Positions 1,006-15,940 of a stretch of 17,536 bases of DNA are shown piece by piece (the first letter of the stretch is position 1; each line of letters opens with the position of its first letter). The DNA is from a virus. A program made the position numbers and the translations under genes. The notes under the pieces are model-generated. The model was not told where the DNA came from. It made no database searches and saw only the letters and a list, made by a program, of their open reading frames with translations. The stretch is taken from the UHGV virus genome UHGV-1676750; one strand, given 5' to 3'.

Positions 1006-1833
1006 ATGGAATATAGAACTGCGGACGCTCTTTGTGGTGTTTACAAAATTACTAACATTATTAATTGGAAAGTTTATATTGGACAGAGTATTAACATAAT
1101 GGTTAGATGGAAAGAACATGTTAATGCTTTAAATAGAAATGGTAGTAGTTGTACACTTTTACAACGGGCATGGAATAAATATGGGCAAGAGAATTTTTCT
1201 TTTGAGATTTTAGAGTTATGTTCTGAAGATATGTTGGACGAGATTGAAGTAAAATATATAGAAATATATGGTGCGTGCAACCCGAAGAAGGGTTATAATA
1301 TCGAATCTGGTGGTAATAAAAATAAGCATTTGTCAGAGGAGACAAAACAAAAACTTAGAGAAGCACATCTTGGGAAAACTATGTCTCCAGAAACCTCACA
1401 GAAAATGTCTAAATCTAGAACTGGAGAGGGCAATGGTATGTATGGTCGGCACCACACCGAAGAGGCAAAAAAGAAAATGAGTGAAGCGAAGAAAGGCAGA
1501 CCTGGACATCCGTGTAGCGATTATGCGAGGGAACGTGCCAGACAAGCTAATTTGGGCAAGATAGTATCCGAAAGAACTTGTCAAAAGCTTAGTGAATCTC
1601 ATAAGGGGAAACCTGCACATAATAAAATTATAATACCGGTATATTGTGTTGAGTTAGATAAAGTTTTTGAATGCCCATCTGATGCAGCGAAAGATCTTAA
1701 CATTAAGAACGCAACTAACATAATGGATTGTTGTAAACACATTCGCAAGACTTGTGGTGGCTATCATTGGGAGTTTGCGTATGTAATTTACCCAGATCTA
1801 TATCCCGCAATACCTTTGACAACACAAAATTAA
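1006..1833 (+). CDS. GIY-YIG family homing endonuclease with NUMOD3-type repeats and a C-terminal NUMOD1-like DNA-binding domain (I-TevI-like, free-standing)
   Basis: N-terminal GVYKITN…KVYIGQS…RWKEH matches the GIY-YIG motif, followed by YNIESGG. Four tandem [ST]-x-E-[TA]-x-x-K-[MIL]-S-x-[AS] repeats (HLSEETKQKLREAHLGK, SPETSQKMSKSRTG, HTEEAKKKMSEAKKGR, SERTCQKLSESHKGK) fit NUMOD3. The C-terminus IPVYCVELDKVFECPSDAAKDL…GGYHWEF fits the DNA-binding tail of phage homing endonucleases. RBS GGAGGT at 991-996. Confidence 0.85.
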   Translation: MEYRTADALCGVYKITNIINWKVYIGQSINIMVRWKEHVNALNRNGSSCTLLQRAWNKYGQENFSFEILELCSEDMLDEIEVKYIEIYGACNPKKGYNIESGGNKNKHLSEETKQKLREAHLGKTMSPETSQKMSKSRTGEGNGMYGRHHTEEAKKKMSEAKKGRPGHPCSDYARERARQANLGKIVSERTCQKLSESHKGKPAHNKIIIPVYCVELDKVFECPSDAAKDLNIKNATNIMDCCKHIRKTCGGYHWEFAYVIYPDLYPAIPLTTQN

Positions 1834-4772: not shown

Positions 4773-5195
4773 ATGGCAGAGTATATAACAAAAATTAGAA
4801 CTATGAATGGCGACTTGCAATATGACTATAATTCACTGTATGACAAACCAGAATCTGATACTCAATTAGAAAAATCAGGGGCGTTTGCCGATGCTCAGGT
4901 GGTTGGAAATAAAATTAAGAGCATAAATACACAACTGAATACCATTAATAGTCAGATTACAGAGATCAAGAATAGCACTCACGTTCATTCTGCAAATGAT
5001 ATTACTAGTGGTACACTAAGTGTTGACAGGCTGCCAACAATTCCGATTATAAAAGGCGGAACTGGAGCTGAAAATGGGCAAGATGGATTAAAGAATTTAT
5101 TAGCATCTGGGGCAATGATTTTGTCTGCTAATCAGTATGGGACTGACTTTCCAAGCAATCCAATTGTAGGTCAAGTCTTCTTTTTAAAGGTATAA
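4773..5195 (+). CDS. Short tail-fibre-like protein with a GGTGA motif and a P…P…GQVFF motif
   Basis: ATG at 4773 with AGGAGG at 4755-4760. Contains DRLPTIPIIKGGTGAENGQDGLKNLLA, as in fibre N-terminal regions, and ends …PSNPIVGQVFFLKV. Confidence 0.65.
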   Translation: MAEYITKIRTMNGDLQYDYNSLYDKPESDTQLEKSGAFADAQVVGNKIKSINTQLNTINSQITEIKNSTHVHSANDITSGTLSVDRLPTIPIIKGGTGAENGQDGLKNLLASGAMILSANQYGTDFPSNPIVGQVFFLKV

Positions 5196-6163: not shown

Positions 6164-6880
6164 ATGCCTCAGAACATCTTTAAAATCTATGATGGTAGAA
6201 CGAACTTTTGGCAATGGGACACTAAGCAGAAATTGATTGTTTTAGATGATCGTATTACAGAAGTTCGTTTTTCTAATAGAAATATGGAACACTCAAAACG
6301 TAGACCTGTCTACACGGACAATAATGGAGTTAGAATTTGTAATGTGCCTGATGTGCTCTTGCAACTTCCTAAGAATCTTATAGCGTATGCGTGTATTAAG
6401 CAAGACGATGGGACTTGTAGCACAGTAAAAGCGGTCAAGTTTGCAGTTGCTAGACAGCCAATTCCTGCGGATTATGTGTGTGAGCAAGATGCAGTTATTG
6501 AAAACATTCTCGCAAAGATCGAGATGCTTGAGAATTTACTCAAAGAAGTTGAGTCTGGATCAAAAGAAATGAAGAAGTTCACTAGCATGGTGGAAGCTGC
6601 ACAATGGGCCAAAGAAAATGGCAACGCTGGTGACATTGTTGTCATCAAACTTGATGTAGGTTGGGTGCCTCATGTTATTGAAGACGGCAAGAGTCTAAGC
6701 GCTATTTGCAACTGTGATGGCGATGAGATTGTTCTTCAGCTCGACGGAGATGACCCCGACGGCATTAATGAAGACGAAGAAGATATGGTTCTGTATTATG
6801 ACGGTAATTATATTGACGAAAGTAACGATGTAATTCAGTATTTTGATGGCGGTTCCGCATCTGGTTTACAAACGGGGTGA
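6164..6880 (+). CDS. Hypothetical phage protein (238 aa) with an acidic C-terminus
   Basis: ATG at 6164 with AGGAGGTGA at 6151-6159. No named motif. Confidence 0.7.
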   Translation: MPQNIFKIYDGRTNFWQWDTKQKLIVLDDRITEVRFSNRNMEHSKRRPVYTDNNGVRICNVPDVLLQLPKNLIAYACIKQDDGTCSTVKAVKFAVARQPIPADYVCEQDAVIENILAKIEMLENLLKEVESGSKEMKKFTSMVEAAQWAKENGNAGDIVVIKLDVGWVPHVIEDGKSLSAICNCDGDEIVLQLDGDDPDGINEDEEDMVLYYDGNYIDESNDVIQYFDGGSASGLQTG

Positions 6881-6884
6881 GAGA

Positions 6885-7244
6885 ATGGCCGATATAAGAA
6901 AAGTAAAAACTGTATTTCAAATCAGGCGCTCGACGACTGCGGAATGGGAAGCGAATAAAGATGCAATTCCTGATGCCGGAGAGCCCTGTTTTGATTTAGA
7001 CTTTGGTATATTAAAAATTGGTGATGGAAAGACCGCTTATAAAGACCTCAAGATTATTGGTGCTGGCGCTTCAATATCTGACGATGGTCTTTATTTAATT
7101 GTTGATAATTTGCAGAAAGATATCGATGAATTAAAGATCCGCATTGAAAATATTTCTGTTGAAGATCAAATTAATGATGCTATGAGCGATATTGTGGATG
7201 ACTCAGAATTACAGCAAACTCTGGATTCTGTGTTAAATAATTAA
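6885..7244 (+). CDS. Short fibre paralogue: HylP-like N-terminal attachment domain plus a short helical tail (possibly a truncated or minimal fibre)
   Basis: MADIRKVKTVFQIRRSTTAEWEANKDAIPDAGEPCFDLDFGILKIGDGKTAYKDLKIIG matches the conserved N-terminus of Gram-positive phage fibre/hyaluronidase (HylP) proteins: FQ/K-R-R…AEW…GE…D…KIGDG…Y…L. Confidence 0.7.
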   Translation: MADIRKVKTVFQIRRSTTAEWEANKDAIPDAGEPCFDLDFGILKIGDGKTAYKDLKIIGAGASISDDGLYLIVDNLQKDIDELKIRIENISVEDQINDAMSDIVDDSELQQTLDSVLNN

Positions 7245-7263
7245 GTTAAAGGAAGTGATGAAA

Positions 7264-8679
7264 ATGGCAATTAAAAAAATCAAGACATTGTTCCAACTCC
7301 GCAGGGGAACCACTGCCGAATGGGAACTCAATAAATCCGTAGTTCCCGCCGCTGGTGAACCGTGTTTTGATCTAGACCTTGGTACACTCAAAATTGGCGA
7401 CGGCGTTAAAACCTATGAGCAATTAGATGTAATTGGCGGCGGCAATGTAGCGCTTTCTGCCGATGGCAAGTCTATCATTTTGGATGACGGCATTTTTAAG
7501 CTTGCTGGTTTTGCCGATGCTGAAACTGGTGCTCAGCCTCGCAAGAACGCCGACGGCAATATTGAGTGGGTTGTACCTTCTAGCGAAACTCTTGATGGTC
7601 TACAGACAATTGTCGCTGGTTTACAAACTGACGTTACTGGATTGCAAACTAGCGTTGCTAGTATTCAGGAGGTTCTAGCTCCATCCGATGAAGGTGCAAT
7701 GACTCTACTAGAGAGAGTTGCCGCAATTGAGGGTAAGGTTGGCGAAAGCTCTGTTGATGAAAAAATTAACACTGCCTTTGACGACTTTATGGCAAAAGTT
7801 TCTGATGATGGCATCGTCAATACTGTCAAAGAACTAATTGACTATGTAGCAGACCATGCGCCCGAGGCCGCTCAGATGGCCGCTGATATTACTAGTCTGC
7901 AAGAACTTGTTGGTAACACCTCTGTTGATGCCCAAATTCTAGCTGCCATTACTACAAGCGAAGCAAAAACCGCTGCTCTTTACAAGAAAGTAAAATATGA
8001 GATTTCTTCTAAGCCCGCCGAAGCTTTAGTGGACTATAGAGAGAAAGAAATCAGAATTATGTGTCCCGCTGATACTCAATTTGAGCTTCAGAATGTTGGT
8101 CCTACTGGTGATTCTACTAGATACTATATTGGATTTAAGGCATATGCCCCTGATGGCGCTGTAAGCTTTAAGGAAGATACTAAGGCTACCATTGAAGATA
8201 CTACTATGTATTACTTTGAAGGCAATGATTTTGCTGGCACTGATGCTTATGGTCGTAAGTATAGTATTGTATGGCTACCTGTGGCAAAGCATAATGATGA
8301 TGATACTTGGACTTATTATGGTACTAATTCTAGTGCTGCCAAGTATATTGGCTGGTACTACTCTGTCGAGTGGTATGGTGCTAATGGTAAGGTTATTGCG
8401 TCTGATATCATTCGTATTAATCTAAGTAATGAGGCTTGCCATAATGTGGTTGAGCCTTATTTTATGGGCCAAGTTGTTAAGGGAGTTAGCGTTGGTGGAA
8501 CTCTGCTTGATTTGATTGACAATAAGGTTAATATTAATGCCAGTGATATTGTTAAAGGGTCTGATGAAATTGCGGTTGCTGAGGACGGGACTCTAAGCAT
8601 TGGCCAAATTAATGTGTCCAAGCTGGTGCAGGATGAAGGCTCCGAGCTAGTCTTTGATGGCGGCGGGGCTTCTAGATAA
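7264..8679 (+). CDS. Tail-fibre protein with a HylP-like N-terminal domain, GLQTxVx heptad repeats and VGxxSVD-x-x-I modules
   Basis: ATG at 7264, 8 nt after AAAGGAAG. N-terminus TLFQLRRGTTAEWELNKSVVPAAGEPCFDLDLGTLKIGDGVKTYEQL. Three 21-bp tandem heptad repeats at 7597-7659. Contains LVGNTSVDAQILAAI and KVGESSVDEKINTAF. Confidence 0.8.
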   Translation: MAIKKIKTLFQLRRGTTAEWELNKSVVPAAGEPCFDLDLGTLKIGDGVKTYEQLDVIGGGNVALSADGKSIILDDGIFKLAGFADAETGAQPRKNADGNIEWVVPSSETLDGLQTIVAGLQTDVTGLQTSVASIQEVLAPSDEGAMTLLERVAAIEGKVGESSVDEKINTAFDDFMAKVSDDGIVNTVKELIDYVADHAPEAAQMAADITSLQELVGNTSVDAQILAAITTSEAKTAALYKKVKYEISSKPAEALVDYREKEIRIMCPADTQFELQNVGPTGDSTRYYIGFKAYAPDGAVSFKEDTKATIEDTTMYYFEGNDFAGTDAYGRKYSIVWLPVAKHNDDDTWTYYGTNSSAAKYIGWYYSVEWYGANGKVIASDIIRINLSNEACHNVVEPYFMGQVVKGVSVGGTLLDLIDNKVNINASDIVKGSDEIAVAEDGTLSIGQINVSKLVQDEGSELVFDGGGASR

Positions 8680-8726: not shown

Positions 8727-10664
8727 ATGGCTATTGAAAAAACACTTAATACTCGTCTGAAACTTCGTTACGATTCTCATGAGAATTGGCTTGCTAATGA
8801 TCCTACTCTGCTTGCAGGCGAAGTCGCTCTAAGTGCTGTATCTGTTAAGCAGGACGGCGTAGTTAACGAAGTCCCCAGCGTACTAATTAAAGTTGGCGAT
8901 GGCACTCATAAGTATTCCGAACTAGATTATGCTTACGCGAGGGCGGCAGATGTCATCGAGCAGGCTAAGAGTGCAGAAAAGCTAACCGATTTCATCAACA
9001 ATGTAATTGCTAGTGCTGGTATTGCCACTGACGAGGCTCTAACTACTCTAGCTGGTAAGGTTACTACTGCCGAAGGCAAGATCACTGCTCTAGAAGGTCT
9101 AGTTGGCGATACTGCCGTAGCCACTCAGATTCAGAATAAGATTGATGCTCTGAAACTATCCGATACCTATGCCGCAAAGTCTCACACTCATACTAAGTCT
9201 GAGATTACTGATTTTGCGCATACTCATGTTATTGGTGATGTAACTGGTTTAAGCGATTCTATTGCTGAAGCTAAGCAGACTGGCCTTGACGCAACTTCTG
9301 CTCTTAATACTTATAAGAATACTAATGATGCTGCTGTAAAGGCCAATACTGATGCAATTGCTGCTATTAACAACGCTGACACTGGTATTCTTGCTCAGGC
9401 TAAGACTTATGCTGACGGAAAGGATGCCGCTATTACCGCTGCTAAGAATGCTGCTGATGCTGCTCAGGCTGACGTTGACGCCCTAGAAGCTAAGGTCGGC
9501 ACTGTCCCTGCAGATACCACTGTTGTCCAGATGATTGCTGACGCCCAGGATGCTGCTACTTATGATGACACTGCTCTAAAGGGTCGTGTAAGCGCAAACG
9601 AGACTGCTATTAGCAAGCTAAATGGGCTTGTCGGTGACACCGCTGTCGCCACTCAGATTAGCACTGCTGTTTCCGATGCTAAGACTGAGCTAAAGGGTAG
9701 CGCTTCCGATACCGATGCTTCTGCTACTATTGCTGGCGCTAAGAAGTATGCTGACAAGCTAGATGCTGCTATGGATGCTCGTGTTGATGCTCTAGAGGCT
9801 GCTGTTGGCGAAGATGGTTCTGTTGCAGAGAAGATCACTGCCGCAGTTGAAGCTCTTGACGCTACCGTTGAGACCGCTGCAATCCCAGAAGGTCAGGACG
9901 GTATTTATGTAAAGGTTACCGAGGTTGATGGTAAGCTAACTGCTGTTGAGGCTACTATCGAAGTATCTAATGAGATTAATGCTGCTAAGTCCGAGCTTGA
10001 GGACAAGATTGGTACTGTTGCCGAGGGTAAGACTCTTGCTGGTCTAATCGCTGACAATGCTGCCGCTATTGAGGCTCATAAGACTGCGGTCGATGCTAAG
10101 GTAACCACTCTAATTGGTGCTGATACCGACAAATCCGTGCGTACTATTGCTAATGAGGAACTGGCTGCTCAGCTGATTCCTGAGAACGCTAAGGAATCTC
10201 TAAATACCCTACAGGAGATCGCTGCTTGGATTCAGGCTCACCCCGATGATGCCGCTACAATGAATACGGCCATTGCAAACCTAAAGGCGCTAGTTGGTGA
10301 CGAAAGTGTTAACGCTCAGATTAATACTGCCGTTGACAACCTAAAGAATAACGAGATTAAGAACGCAACTGATCGCATTGCAGATCTAGAGGCTGATACT
10401 CACACTCATGCCAACAAGGCCCTGCTCGATTCTTACACTCAGACCGAAGCTGACCTGGCTGACGCCGTTGCTAAGAAGCACGAGCACGCTAATGCTACCG
10501 AACTGGCCAAGTTCGTTGAGGGTGATAAGGATAAGCTAGATGCCGCCGTTCAGACTGTTACCGCTGGCACTGGCCTCACCGCAACTAAGACTGGTACTGA
10601 TGTAGCTATTGGATTTGACGATACTGTCACTTTCGTGTTTGACTGCGGCGATAGCTCCATCTAA
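8727..10664 (+). CDS. Long tail-fibre protein: HylP-like N-terminus (variant), Ala-rich helical shaft, three VGD-x-x-V-x-x-QI modules and HTH/HxH motifs
   Basis: ATG at 8727 with AAGGAG at 8711-8716. Contains LVGDTAVATQIQNKI, LVGDTAVATQISTAV, LVGDESVNAQINTAV, SHTHTKSEITDFAHTHV and DTHTHANKALLDSY. G+C is visibly higher than in flanking AT-rich genes. Confidence 0.8.
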   Translation: MAIEKTLNTRLKLRYDSHENWLANDPTLLAGEVALSAVSVKQDGVVNEVPSVLIKVGDGTHKYSELDYAYARAADVIEQAKSAEKLTDFINNVIASAGIATDEALTTLAGKVTTAEGKITALEGLVGDTAVATQIQNKIDALKLSDTYAAKSHTHTKSEITDFAHTHVIGDVTGLSDSIAEAKQTGLDATSALNTYKNTNDAAVKANTDAIAAINNADTGILAQAKTYADGKDAAITAAKNAADAAQADVDALEAKVGTVPADTTVVQMIADAQDAATYDDTALKGRVSANETAISKLNGLVGDTAVATQISTAVSDAKTELKGSASDTDASATIAGAKKYADKLDAAMDARVDALEAAVGEDGSVAEKITAAVEALDATVETAAIPEGQDGIYVKVTEVDGKLTAVEATIEVSNEINAAKSELEDKIGTVAEGKTLAGLIADNAAAIEAHKTAVDAKVTTLIGADTDKSVRTIANEELAAQLIPENAKESLNTLQEIAAWIQAHPDDAATMNTAIANLKALVGDESVNAQINTAVDNLKNNEIKNATDRIADLEADTHTHANKALLDSYTQTEADLADAVAKKHEHANATELAKFVEGDKDKLDAAVQTVTAGTGLTATKTGTDVAIGFDDTVTFVFDCGDSSI

Positions 10665-10743: not shown

Positions 10744-11589
10744 ATGCCAAATAAAGAAATATTGGCCCGTGTCAAGCAAAAAAGAGATACGAGCGCTAAC
10801 TGGGAAGCACGAAATCCAGTTATTTTAAATGGCGAGATTATTCTCGTAGATACCAACGCAGGCGAGCTTAGAGCTAAAATTGGCGATGGTACAAAAACGT
10901 ATACTCAGCTACCTTTTTCAGATGAAGCTTTAAGAAGCCTCATCAATGCAAATAAGGTTACGGTAGATAGTGCGCTGTCTTCTACTAGTACCAATCCTGT
11001 ACAGAATAAAATTGTAAACGCCGCCATTAGCAACTTGAATACTTTGGTTGGTGATACCTCTATATCTTCTCAAATCGAAACTGCTGTTGCTTCAAAGCTC
11101 GACGCCGCAGATGCGACTTGGGCTCAGATTTATGATTCTGGCGCAATTACATCAGAAGTAAACTCTATTGCGGGCATTGATATCACAGGTTATAAGAGTC
11201 TAATGGTTGCTGTTAAGTGTGTAAACACTACGAATACCGCCAGTACAAGAGCTGGTGCGGTAATTTTTACTGGCAATAATCAAGACTATGCGTTTAATAA
11301 TCTTTTTAGCAACCTGATTAAAAATGGTACAACAACTTCCGGTGCTATGGCTAAATTTAAGATCGTGGACGGTTTTATTATTTGTGAGACTGCTATGAGA
11401 GCAATTACTGCGGATGGCATTTTATCTGATGCCGAAGGGGTAGGAATTGATACATTAGCCCCAGTAAGTAGTGGTCTTATTAAGTGTACAAACGCAGTCA
11501 CTACAATGGCCGTTTCTAGTGCGGCTCAGTCTGCAGACCATTACTACGGTGTTGGTAGTAGAGTTATTGTTTGGGGGTGTAAGGTATAA
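10744..11589 (+). CDS. Tail-fibre protein with a HylP-like N-terminal domain and one VGDT module
   Basis: N-terminus ILARVKQKRDTSANWEARNPVILNGEIILVDTNAGELRAKIGDGTKTYTQLPF. Contains LVGDTSISSQIETAVASKL. Confidence 0.8.
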   Translation: MPNKEILARVKQKRDTSANWEARNPVILNGEIILVDTNAGELRAKIGDGTKTYTQLPFSDEALRSLINANKVTVDSALSSTSTNPVQNKIVNAAISNLNTLVGDTSISSQIETAVASKLDAADATWAQIYDSGAITSEVNSIAGIDITGYKSLMVAVKCVNTTNTASTRAGAVIFTGNNQDYAFNNLFSNLIKNGTTTSGAMAKFKIVDGFIICETAMRAITADGILSDAEGVGIDTLAPVSSGLIKCTNAVTTMAVSSAAQSADHYYGVGSRVIVWGCKV

Positions 11590-12928: not shown

Positions 12929-14266
12929 ATGAAGAAGTTGACGCATGAAGAATTTATTGAGAAAGTAACGAAACTCAACGAACATGTTGCAAATGGTGAG
13001 ATAGAAATATTAAGTCAGTATATAAACCAAAGAACTAAAATTAAATGTAAATGTGCCATACATAATACTATATGGGAGAGATCGGTACAAAGCCTTTACG
13101 AAAATAGTGGTTGTGAAGATTGTAAATATGAATTAAGTGGAAGAAAAAGACGGTTTTCACATGAAGAATTTGTTGAAAAGATAAAGGTTTTAAATGATGA
13201 AATTATAGTTTTGGGACATTATACAACGATGAATAAATCAATTGAATTTCAATGTAAATTTGGTCATATATGGACAGCCAAGCCTTATAGCATTATCAAT
13301 GGGCATCAATGTCCATATTGTGCTGGGCAAAAACCTATAATTGGGAATAATGACTTATGGACAACAAGACCAGACGTTGCAAGTTTATTAAAAAATCGTG
13401 ATGACGGATATGGTTTGATGGAATTTAGTCAGCGTAAAGTAATATTTATTTGTCCAACATGCGGTAACGAAATCATAAAATCAGTTCAACGTGTATCAAT
13501 AGATGGGCTTGTTTGCCAAAGATGTTCTGATGGTGTATCATATCCGAATAAATTTGCAAGAGCATTTTTAAATCAACTACTTGGTAATAATTTTAAATGT
13601 GAGTATCAACCTGATTGGGCCAAACCATATTATTATGATAATTATTTTGAATATGGTAATAAGAAATATATTTTGGAGATGGATGGCAGTTTTCATTATA
13701 TTTCAAGACAGTTGACCAAACAGTCTCTTGATGAACGAAAAAGGATTGATGCATTAAAAGATAAACTTGCTGAGCAACATAATATTCGTGTTATTCGTAT
13801 AGAGTGTATAAAATCTAATTGTAATTACATAAAGAATAACATTTTACAATCCGAGTTGAGTTTAGTTTTTAATTTATCTAAGATTAATTGGGATTTATGC
13901 GACCAAATGGCGCAAAGAAGTTTGGTTAAAGATGTTTGTAATTTATATATGAACGGAATAAAAGATTTGCATAAAATAGCAGAAATATTGCATATTAGCA
14001 AAAGTACGGTATATGTATATTTGGTTAGAGGTTCTAAGTTTGGATGGTGTGATTACGATGGGAAGAATGCTCATTACTTGAAAATTTCTATTCCAATAAT
14101 TGTACTTGATGAAAATAACAATGCTATACATAAGTTTGATAGTATTAGTGCGTGCAAAGAAGAGATGAAAAAAATGTACGGATATTCATTTGATAGAAAT
14201 ACTTTGAAAAAAGCTTGTGAGTATTCTATTTCATATCATGGATTTAACTTTAAATATGCGTATTAA
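12929..14266 (+). CDS. Multi-domain homing-endonuclease-like protein: tandem zinc-ribbon modules, a Vsr/DUF559-like PD-(D/E)xK nuclease core, a helix-turn-helix and a NUMOD1-like C-terminal DNA-binding domain
   Basis: Two ~60-aa repeats ([TS]HEEF[IV]EK…LN…C-x-x-H…W…G-x-x-C-x-x-C) and a third CPTCG…CQRCS module. KKYILEMDGSFHYI…DERKRIDALKDKLAEQHNIRVIRIE resembles the DUF559/Vsr-like endonuclease motif. KIAEILHISKSTVYVYL is HTH-like. The C-terminus IPIIVLDENNNAIHKFDSISACKEEM…YHGFNFKY parallels the C-terminus of the GIY-YIG protein. Very AT-rich. RBS GGAGGT at 12915-12920. Confidence 0.65.
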   Translation: MKKLTHEEFIEKVTKLNEHVANGEIEILSQYINQRTKIKCKCAIHNTIWERSVQSLYENSGCEDCKYELSGRKRRFSHEEFVEKIKVLNDEIIVLGHYTTMNKSIEFQCKFGHIWTAKPYSIINGHQCPYCAGQKPIIGNNDLWTTRPDVASLLKNRDDGYGLMEFSQRKVIFICPTCGNEIIKSVQRVSIDGLVCQRCSDGVSYPNKFARAFLNQLLGNNFKCEYQPDWAKPYYYDNYFEYGNKKYILEMDGSFHYISRQLTKQSLDERKRIDALKDKLAEQHNIRVIRIECIKSNCNYIKNNILQSELSLVFNLSKINWDLCDQMAQRSLVKDVCNLYMNGIKDLHKIAEILHISKSTVYVYLVRGSKFGWCDYDGKNAHYLKISIPIIVLDENNNAIHKFDSISACKEEMKKMYGYSFDRNTLKKACEYSISYHGFNFKYAY

Positions 14267-14336
14267 CAATACAAAATTAATGTTTAAAGTAATTAGTGAA
14301 ATAATAAAGTCTAAAATACTAAGGAGGAGTTTATAT

Positions 14337-15557
14337 ATGTCTAACCCCAATTTCAATCCTACGTATAGCTCGAACTTAATTTGGAGAGATGAAGACGACA
14401 CTCGTTGTATTACTGATGACCTAGATAATATCGAATCCGACATCACTGCACTCGAAACAGGCAAGGCCGACACTAACCATACACATACCGGATATGCTAC
14501 TACAGATCACACTCATACAGGCTACGCCGCAGCAGATCATACCCACACTGGCTATGCGGCGGCTGCAGACGTAACTACACTACAAAATTTGGTTGGAGAC
14601 ACTAGTGTATCTTCTCAGATCAGTACGGCTATTGCGGGCAAGGTTGATGCTGTGGAAGGTAAAGGCTTGTCTACCAATGACTATACGACAGCCGAGAAGA
14701 ATAAGCTTACTGGAATTGATACAGGAGCTAACAATTATGTGCTTCCAACTGCAAGCAGCACTACTCTTGGCGGTATTAAAACTGGGGATAACATTACTAA
14801 TTCGTCTGGTACGATTAGTCTAACAAAAAGCAATGTCACGTCAGCTTTAGGATATACTCCATTTGGCAGTAGTACGTTGTCAATGGCCAATGGTGGTACT
14901 GGCAGCGCTCAGGTTGTTAATGCTCCAAAGAATGCCATATTGAAGAAGGCAAACGATGGGAACTATGTGTGGTATACTCAGACAAAAAGTGGGGCTTTCT
15001 ACGCTACTGCAACAGATGGAGTTCCGAAATTCGGTGTACTGCCCAAGGCATTAGGTGGCACAGGTGCGGATTTCAGTAATATTCCAGCTAATGCTATTAT
15101 TCGTAATTCTGGTTCTGGCGGTAGTGACTTGTACTATTTTGCAACTGGCAATGGGGCATGCTATGCCACATCAGCTAATGGGTATCCGACTTTTGGTACA
15201 TTGCCCGTAGCGCAAGGTGGCACTGGCGAAACTACTGCTTGGACAAATGGTACAGTTACGAGTTTGAATAGTACTACTATTACATCATACCAATTTGCTG
15301 TTTTCCCCTATTTAAATAAGGCATTTATTAGGCTTAATGTGCTATTAGGTAGTGCTTTAGATGCTGACGAAGCTAGATATATAGTAATGCCGTCAACTGT
15401 TGCAACTGCACATACTGCTTTGTCTTGCTTTAATATTGCTGGATATGATATTCATTGTGGTATGGCTAGCGATAGTGGCATTTATGTAATTAATTGTGGT
15501 ACTGCTTCAATGCCCAATACTGTACGTCTTTATATTGCGGGATGGTATTCAATCTAA
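14337..15557 (+). CDS. Tail-fibre protein with an HTHTGYA triple repeat, one VGDT module and repeated GGTG motifs
   Basis: ATG at 14337 with AAGGAGG at 14321-14327; the track ORF from 14217 overlaps the upstream gene and lacks an RBS. Contains NHTHTGYATTDHTHTGYAAADHTHTGYAAA, LVGDTSVSSQISTAIAGKV, and three L-x-x-x-GGTG motifs (MANGGTGSA, PKALGGTGAD, PVAQGGTGET). Confidence 0.8.
   Translation: MSNPNFNPTYSSNLIWRDEDDTRCITDDLDNIESDITALETGKADTNHTHTGYATTDHTHTGYAAADHTHTGYAAAADVTTLQNLVGDTSVSSQISTAIAGKVDAVEGKGLSTNDYTTAEKNKLTGIDTGANNYVLPTASSTTLGGIKTGDNITNSSGTISLTKSNVTSALGYTPFGSSTLSMANGGTGSAQVVNAPKNAILKKANDGNYVWYTQTKSGAFYATATDGVPKFGVLPKALGGTGADFSNIPANAIIRNSGSGGSDLYYFATGNGACYATSANGYPTFGTLPVAQGGTGETTAWTNGTVTSLNSTTITSYQFAVFPYLNKAFIRLNVLLGSALDADEARYIVMPSTVATAHTALSCFNIAGYDIHCGMASDSGIYVINCGTASMPNTVRLYIAGWYSI
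14475..14564 (+). repeat. Three tandem 30-bp coding repeats, each encoding [ND]HTHTGYA-x-x
   Basis: aaccatacacataccggatatgctactaca / gatcacactcatacaggctacgccgcagca / gatcatacccacactggctatgcggcggct. Confidence 0.75.
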
Positions 15558-15571
15558 GGAGGATGATATAT

Positions 15572-15940
15572 ATGAAAATTCTACTTGATGAAAATAATTA
15601 TCTGACTTGTATTTGTATTGATGCTGAATTAGAGAATGGTATAGAAGTAGAAACCCCAGATGACATTGATGCTTTTATTGACGTATTTAGGGCGTATAAG
15701 TATGAAGATGGCAAATTGATTTTAGATGAAGCAAGATTGGATAAGTTGAACAATGAACGTTTAGCAGATGAATTACGTCATAAGCGTGAGAAAAAATGTT
15801 TTCCTATTATTAATCGTGGGGCACTTTGGTACAATCATCTGTCTGGGCAACAAAGAGCCGAGCTGGATGTGTGGTATCAGGCATGGCTTAATGTTACTGA
15901 GACGAAAGTTGAGCCTGAAACGCCTGAGTGGTTAAAATAA
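15572..15940 (+). CDS. Hypothetical protein directly downstream of the fibre gene; possible fibre-associated or assembly protein (assigned by position only)
   Basis: ATG at 15572 with AAGGAGG at 15556-15562. Trp-rich C-terminus (…DVWYQAWLNVTETKVEPETPEWLK). Confidence 0.6.
   Translation: MKILLDENNYLTCICIDAELENGIEVETPDDIDAFIDVFRAYKYEDGKLILDEARLDKLNNERLADELRHKREKKCFPIINRGALWYNHLSGQQRAELDVWYQAWLNVTETKVEPETPEWLK

Follow-up and report, generated by a model that had tools for sequence, protein, structure and literature searches.

A strictly periodic His-x-His array in a phage tail-fibre gene, a candidate stack of axial metal sites with variable unit number

Octahedral iron held by three His-x-His (HxH) motifs on a three-fold axis has been described in T4 gp37, P2 gpV, phi92 gp138, and the R1/R2 pyocin fibres, with zinc at the equivalent site of T4 gp12 (PMC6116203). 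The HxH-bound iron is buried in the known structures, and the axial metal has been proposed to serve as a reference point in folding and as a stiffener (PMC6116203). HxH iron sites in gp37-like fibres were also described elsewhere (PMC8174754, PMC12609058). Such sites are already accepted in phage fibres and spikes, and the motif alone is unsurprising. Here, we describe an HxH array in a tail-fibre gene at positions 14337 to 15557 of a 17,536-nucleotide (nt) stretch of the virus genome UHGV-1676750 (the window), which represents a phage tail-fibre cluster. What is new is the format of the array, namely, a strictly periodic, self-contained 10-residue module that occurs in 1 to 14 copies, varies by whole units, and is covered by no family model or structure. 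The reading we favour, with somewhat better than even confidence, is that the gene encodes a homotrimeric fibre with one axial metal clamp per unit, the length of which would be changed by recombination.

The mechanical list of open reading frames (ORFs) starts the fibre gene earlier, at the GTG at 14217; the product of 406 amino acids (aa) was counted from the ATG at 14337, nine bases past the AGGAGG, to the stop codon at 15555-15557. The database protein P0001 was 100% identical to this ATG product, and a syntenic counterpart of the gene was present in locus L001. An 80-aa ORF on the minus strand (14231-14473) was judged spurious. From the N terminus, the fibre protein has a helix with heptad spacing, followed by the HxH array, then a helix-turn-helix and, at the C terminus, a beta head. 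A monomer model of the window protein was built by AlphaFold2 (AF2) with a 37-sequence alignment, and its confidence is given as predicted local distance difference test (pLDDT) values. The features are as follows.

14337..15557, + strand: receptor-binding tail-fibre gene, 406 aa, ATG start with AGGAGG at 14322-14327, assigned by translation, homology, and synteny
14409..14465, + strand: heptad helix with a/d positions I25, L29, I32, I36, and L39, spacing read from the sequence; AF2 helix over residues 25-42, pLDDT 75-78
14475-14504, 14505-14534, and 14535-14564, + strand: array of three 10-residue HxHxGYAxx units, aa 47-76
14565..14645, + strand: helix-turn-helix 'LQNLVGDTSVSSQISTAI' module, AF2 helices 77-86 and 89-99
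15234..15554, + strand: C-terminal beta-sandwich head, aa 300-406, pLDDT 88-96, compared by Foldseek

The three units (aa 47-76) read NHTHTGYATT / DHTHTGYAAA / DHTHTGYAAA, and their translation matched exactly the peptides and coordinates (nt 14475-14564) given in an earlier model-made note on this DNA (the original prediction). Three HxH motifs in the fibre gene compare with 0.13 expected from residue shuffles, none of 2000 of which reached three. HxH motifs in the context of a fibre protein were also present in the 8727 gene of the window, with four observed versus 0.21 expected (0 of 2000 shuffles). The counts in the two genes are not due to chance.

Several HxH motifs along a trimeric fibre, each with a six-His Fe2+ site, occur in the T4 gp37 needle (PDB 2XGF) and in gp37-like tips (Bas63 and Burkholderia phage E094 gp23). 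The gp37 tip region 883-998 contains seven HxH motifs, as many as gp37 has iron sites. The final three follow a 9-residue period (GDHSHSVGI GAHTHTVAI GSHGHTITV), one with HTHT as in the window, and a H-[S/T]-H-[S/T] core is common to gp37 and the window array. However, the gp37 motifs are irregularly spaced (32, 14, 37, 14, 9, and 9) and located at the receptor-binding tip, whereas the window array has a strict period of 10, a conserved Y-A, an apparently single-pass course, a position near the N terminus, and a variable number of units. Homology to the gp37 tip (2XGF) was not detected, with no PDB match at E<=10, and the likeness was confined to the local H[ST]H[ST]. The R1/R2 pyocin fibre shaft and the spike apex of P2 gpV and phi92 gp138 are trimeric with buried octahedral iron bound through three HxH motifs (PMC6116203), and each of these proteins has one HxH site, in contrast to the periodic array in the window. 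The pyocin fibre resembles the window protein in its helix-plus-turn rod and C-terminal beta-sandwich.

In comparison, gp12 of Alteromonas phage R22Y carries six HxH motifs in the N-terminal fibre shaft, with iron predicted by an AF2 trimer model (PMC11705849). Four of the six are approximately 22 residues apart (135, 157, 179, and 201), they lack the Y-A signature, and the site is a prediction only. The phi29 head fibre gp8.5 (PF11133; PDB 3QC7) and the crAss001 head fibres share the motif 'Y-x-LP-x-A-x-x-T-LGG-[IV]-K' (aa 131-150) and a similar helix-turn-helix style of trimeric rod with the window protein, but gp8.5 has no HxH array. Short periodic repeats in which the length of a trimeric shaft scales with repeat number are represented by the T4 gp5 VxGxxxxx octapeptide and the 15-residue adenovirus shaft repeat. 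These triple beta-helix and beta-spiral repeats have hydrophobic cores, not His or metal, and differ in period and signature.

Conservation of the unit was examined in the best 120 of 3441 matches, from which YA-type units were selected for YA at positions 7-8 (n = 151). The motif was present in every close full-length homologue, so the prospect raised with the original prediction, that homologues might lack it, did not materialise. The consensus of the YA-type units is [D/N]-H-T-H-[T/S]-[G/E]-Y-A-x-x, with T in 125 units at position 3, T or S at position 5, and G in 97 or E in 41 units at position 6. The spacing between HxH motifs was 10 residues in 107 cases and 39 residues, corresponding to 10 plus the 29-aa 'LVGD' helical module, in 24. 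In a wider set (best 150 of the profile matches), a period of 10 was found in 1073, 11 in 272, and 9 in 90 cases, and the longest run comprised 14 consecutive units (P0134). Among the 120 homologues, runs reached 10 units (P0103).

No half-sites were obvious in the homologues. When units were anchored on Y[A/S] at the 10-residue period alone, His was found at both -5 and -3 in 799 of 867, and no one-His pair was among the 15 commonest residue pairs. The exceptions that were inspected represented either variants of 11 residues (HxHDxxYA) or the leader that precedes the first unit. This joint conservation is as expected for an obligate pair of ligands. The main rival explanation does without metal: the repeat would be fibrous and form a thin beta-spiral or triple strand in the trimer, with a hydrogen-bonded core of stacked His, Tyr, and Ala, and HxH would be kept for packing; Y7 and A8 are as regularly kept as both His residues, and the strict period would fit any repetitive fibrous fold. 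Against it, the fibre and spike HxH sites of known structure that PMC6116203 lists ligate an axial metal, six buried imidazoles per level would be unusual without a cation, and ligands account more naturally for the lack of any one-His pair among the commonest pairs. We regard the metal-free repeat as unlikely, though the most serious of the competitors.

The unit is widespread and lacks a model. Among 1.84 billion representatives, a profile of three units matched 824 clusters at E<=1e-3 (261 at the stricter E<=1e-10); prophages of gut Clostridia and large gut phages account for some of these at least 824 clusters. Neither the window protein nor 10 array-rich proteins gave a Pfam-A or NCBIfam match over the array, apart from spurious ones below threshold, and no PHROGs model covered it. 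Queries of the PDB (the whole protein, a run of 10 units spanning 115 aa, and the three-unit profile) matched nothing over the array at E<=10. In the literature, no paper was found on HTHTGYA-type peptide strings or 'HxHxxY', and nothing relevant on tandem HxH in phage with AlphaFold. Distant matches to the module following the array (approximately aa 95-180) were largely from gut Clostridia genomes, and others from Bacteroidota and from crAss-like, Bacillus, and Clostridium phages. With the whole window as the query, Megablast gave no match among GenBank phages. Relatives came from IMG/VR, on viral contigs measuring 93-168 kb, and from a 159-kb contig on which the genes are arranged in the same order.

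The remainder of the protein was compared with known fibres. In the helix immediately N-terminal to the array, I25, L29, I32, I36, and L39 form a 4-3-4-3 heptad, which presumably makes a trimeric coiled coil. The helix-turn-helix module of approximately 29 aa, LQNLVGDTSVSSQISTAI, also occurs in genes 7255, 8727, and 10744 and separates successive HxH runs in homologues, and its copies across the four fibre genes of the window are 45-64% alike in DNA. Copies of this helical module with the pattern 'LxxLVGDTsVxxQIxxAi' start at 7897, 10281, 11035, and 14580, with further ones in the 8727 gene at aa 122 and 298.

The C-terminal head was matched by Foldseek to the head of a lactococcal phage receptor-binding protein (RBP; 2fsd) with a probability of 1.0, TMt of 0.64, and 4.0 A as the root-mean-square deviation (rmsd) over 114 columns at 12% identity. 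The modelled head thus has the lactococcal-phage type of RBP fold, at the level of fold only, and is the probable receptor-binding part. Foldseek also listed the TP901-1 RBP and the R1/R2 pyocin fibres for the window-protein model. The R-pyocin fibre ranked first for the whole model, but with a TM of 0.15-0.23 and an rmsd of approximately 30 A for the extended model, and this match to a predicted structure would indicate a general architectural likeness only. The head fibres of phi29 and crAss001 have a 'YVLPxAxxxTLGGIK' motif, which is located at residues 131-160 in the window protein, within a phi29 head-fibre-like region (aa 116-161) where PF11133 (Phage_head_fibr) scored 22.8 bits, below the cutoff of 24.6; the array lies outside this match, and the domain is precomputed on many homologues. 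PHROGs gave a tail-protein match to the window protein.

The context of the cluster and the fold likeness of the C terminus support the assignment as a phage receptor-binding fibre, and the 'fibre gene' of the original prediction stands, as it sits in a tail-fibre cluster and its C-terminal domain resembles lactococcal RBP heads and R-pyocin fibres. The structural relatives, that is, the lactococcal RBP, the pyocin, and the phi29 and crAss001 fibres, are trimeric. From the heptad helix, the head resembling trimeric RBPs, and the Peptidase_S74 trimer-chaperone domain in another array-bearing protein (P0129), we infer that the window protein is a homotrimer.

The position of the array bears on a different role for the His residues, in which they would be exposed on the surface, either sensing pH or metal or binding a ligand on the host surface or a siderophore receptor (in the manner of the 'Ferrojan horse'). 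Titration of His falls close to physiological pH, and fibre-bound iron has been discussed as a route to siderophore receptors (PMC11705849). However, the array is N-terminal and virion-proximal, approximately 230 residues before the head, its unit number ranges from 1 to 5 in near-identical fibres, which is ill-suited to a specific binding site, and HxH iron is buried in the known structures (PMC6116203). Exposed functional His residues therefore appear quite improbable here.

At the DNA level, the array is not a perfect repeat. Only 17 of 30 columns are invariant among the three units, which share 19-22 of 30 nt pairwise (61-71% in the repeat search), and the longest exact direct repeat within the array is 7 nt. 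Tandem Repeats Finder (TRF) reported nothing at the array, even at a score of 30. Units 2 and 3 encode identical peptides, but their codons differ at 8 of 10 positions, with two shared codons versus 4.4 expected from the codon usage of the cluster; over all identical residues of the window array, the same codon was used in 5 of 24 versus 10.7 expected. The same pattern was seen in 12 distinct arrays, where 26 adjacent pairs of units shared 17-24 of 30 nt (57-80%) and never 25, and where the same codon was used at 35.5% of identical residues, at or below random codon choice. Because adjacent units diverge in nucleotides and codons despite identical residues, it is the peptide that is preserved, not the DNA. 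The 'perfect tandem repetition' of the original prediction thus holds for the peptides of units 2 and 3 but fails for the DNA.

Orthologous units across phages were alike at 25-27 of 30 nt, compared to 19-22 of 30 for neighbours within one gene, and the units are therefore old, with no recent duplication. In the window and 11 other arrays, neighbouring units share codons less often than random choice predicts, the comparisons being non-independent; this codon avoidance gives only a hint of selection against DNA-level repetition. Near-identical head-to-tail DNA units, as in a variable-number tandem repeat or contingency locus, were found neither in the window nor in the 12 arrays.

These data speak directly to the mechanism put forward in the original prediction, a contingency repeat that frequently changes copy number by slipped-strand replication. 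Copy number does differ among close relatives, as slippage would have it. On the other hand, the identity between adjacent units is 57-80% in each of the 26 pairs, TRF is silent, the longest exact repeat is 7 nt, the units are old, with orthologues more alike than neighbours, and a recombination junction accompanies the sole resolved event. Slippage was largely refuted at the sequence level by the low DNA identity of the units and is hardly credible as the source of the variation.

For an RNA or regulatory role of the array DNA, nothing suggestive emerged, since Rfam gave no match on either strand, no inverted repeats were found around the array, and promoter- and terminator-like sites were at or below shuffle expectation.

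The unit number varied among close relatives. Within clusters of at least 90% identity, P0283, P0007, and P0282 have 1, 3, and 5 units and P0271 and P0273 have 4 and 3, respectively, and the three units of the window gene compare with four in P0002-P0004 (90-92% identical). In DNA alignments, these differences represented clean in-frame gaps of 30, 60, and 90 nt. The site had been proposed as length-variable; whole-unit differences among close relatives across samples bear this out, while the reason given for it, a perfect DNA repeat, was wrong.

A single event was resolvable, in the P0273 gene (on L085), which is a three-segment DNA mosaic when compared with L086/P0271 and L003/P0002. From the 5' end through the first unit it is almost all P0271-type at informative sites, the middle stretch is mostly P0002-type, and P0271-type sequence returns from approximately nt 960. 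The 5' switch is located within the array, at the position of the missing unit. The second junction, at approximately nt 960, is located where the head-domain region begins. The L085 junction bears private substitutions, which makes a simple assembly chimera less likely, although still possible. The window gene is also a mosaic, its N terminus and array being P0007-like and the remainder P0002-like, and homologues pair a common N terminus and array with unrelated C termini, and vice versa. Since the P0273 junction inside the array coincides with the loss of a unit, the variation in unit number appears, from these alignments, to come from recombination between related phages rather than from slippage.

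Recombination could also be the very purpose of the motifs, as in the 'His boxes' reportedly proposed by Tetart et al. in 1998 for T-even gp37/gp38, on which our literature search found nothing. The units would then exist as linkers for swapping fibre modules, and any structural role would be secondary. The crossover of P0273 inside the array, the mosaic window gene, and the homologues that swap C termini or the N terminus with the array all agree with this explanation. However, selection as a recombination substrate is contradicted by synonymous sites that are scrambled at or beyond random (5 of 24 versus 10.7; 35.5%) and by a longest exact repeat of only 7 nt, and we consider it improbable that the motifs exist as linkers. 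It is clearly the peptide on which selection acts. As a side effect, recombination within the array is real and agrees with the metal-clamp reading.

The mechanism that we infer, from the trimer and its axial His residues to the metal itself, its identity, and its stiffening and length-tuning role, would run as follows. Each x-H-T-H-T-G-Y-A-x-x unit would contribute one His-x-His pair per chain, and where three chains meet, the six imidazoles at the level of each unit would bind one ion octahedrally on the three-fold axis, most likely Fe2+ and possibly Zn2+. In the window protein with its three units, three clamps would be stacked over a short stretch between the N-terminal coiled coil and the helix-turn-helix, setting the register of the chains in folding and stiffening a thin segment of the shaft. 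Gain or loss of a unit would step the length of the fibre and leave the rest of the protein undisturbed, the fixed step arising because the unit is self-contained. The number of units would alter mainly through unequal or heterologous recombination inside the array, not through replication slippage. The proposed metal coordination by HxH is consistent with all observations.

Several points weigh against this mechanism. The gp37 needle is six-stranded, its chain doubling back (PMC12609058), whereas a single pass gives only three strands here, and a single-pass, three-stranded HxH ladder is without solved precedent. The proposed geometry is extrapolated from non-homologous HxH sites because no solved structure matches the array by sequence (E<=10). 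Glu replaces Gly at position 6 in approximately one-quarter of the units, which would be awkward if this position were packed at the axis. In the AF2 monomer, array residues 45-74 are coil at pLDDT 41-48, a result counted here but neutral in itself. In the same way, the 10-unit array of P0103 (aa 1-203), modelled by AF2 from a single sequence, had a mean pLDDT of 46 and was coil except for a helix at 26-44, and is neutral on the placement of His. Finally, the evidence for recombination comes from one metagenomic contig (L085).

The second HxH fibre gene of the window contains SHTHTKSEITDFAHTHV and DTHTHANK, both as named in the original prediction, and a further HxH beyond the three in that prediction, KKHEHANATEL at aa 585. 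Its features are as follows.

8727..10664, + strand: second fibre gene, 645 aa, Ala-rich, with a Mtd_N-like N terminus and four HxH motifs at aa 153, 165, 559, and 585
9180..9251, + strand: two 12-residue HxH units, SHTHTKSEITDF / AHTHVIGDVTGL (aa 152-175); the L001 homologue has one, with an exact 12-residue alignment gap
10401..10487, + strand: THTHANKALLD and KHEHANATEL (HxH at aa 559 and 585), both kept in the L001 homologue

With two 12-residue units here and one in the L001 homologue, whole-unit variation occurs in the 8727 gene, too. These units (xHxHxxxxITDF / xHxHxxxDVTGL) represent a second flavour of HxH, and 'xHxHxxxDIT' relatives were common among the other matches.

The plus-strand genes at 6843-7244, 7255-8679, 8727-10664, and 10744-11589 share the same Mtd_N or hyaluronidase-type N-terminal anchor (W..N..L..GE...KIGDG..Y..L), which suggests a set of fibres that are mounted together or serve as alternatives. 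The 6843 ORF (133 aa, TTG start), which overlaps 6164-6880, may be a remnant. Gene 16021 matched host-specificity fibre PHROGs. In gene 4773-5195 (140 aa), which has a weak PHROG minor-tail match, the only two His residues form an HxH in 'STHVHSANDITSG' (4980-4988, aa 70-72) in a DIT-type context. After the fibre gene, the plus-strand gene at 15569-15940 (123 aa) gave weak matches to DUF2977 and phrog_300 'tail fiber protein', and a 122-aa counterpart was located downstream of every homologue examined; it may encode a chaperone or partner for fibre assembly.

Immediately upstream of the HxH fibre gene is a homing endonuclease gene (12929-14266, plus strand, 445 aa; PHROG HNH endonuclease, 6e-44) with a treble-clef zinc finger DUF4379, a C-terminal helix-turn-helix, and a GC content of 30% versus 40% for the window. 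It looks like a mobile insertion, as the syntenic L001 has no gene at that position. A second homing endonuclease gene of the GIY-YIG type (1006-1833, plus strand; phrog_314, 5e-50) is inside the same structural cluster. Elsewhere, TRF reported a 21-nt repeat in two copies at 7616-7656 (gene 7255) and a 9-nt repeat in 2.4 copies at 9450-9471 (gene 8727).

It is possible, if a little short of probable, that HxHxxYAxx represents an undescribed building block of fibres, a single-pass, three-stranded 'metal ladder' with one ion per 10 residues (up to 14 ions), a quantised length, and shuffling by recombination. If each unit holds a metal ion, such arrays would be the densest linear repeats of metal sites known in a viral protein, a natural ruler of fibre length, and a designable element for engineered fibres and receptor-binding proteins, and they would bear on estimates of phage-bound iron. 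If the hint of codon avoidance is true, selection would actively guard the array against repeat instability at the DNA level. A Pfam-style model of the unit would improve the annotation of many hypothetical fibre genes of gut phages.

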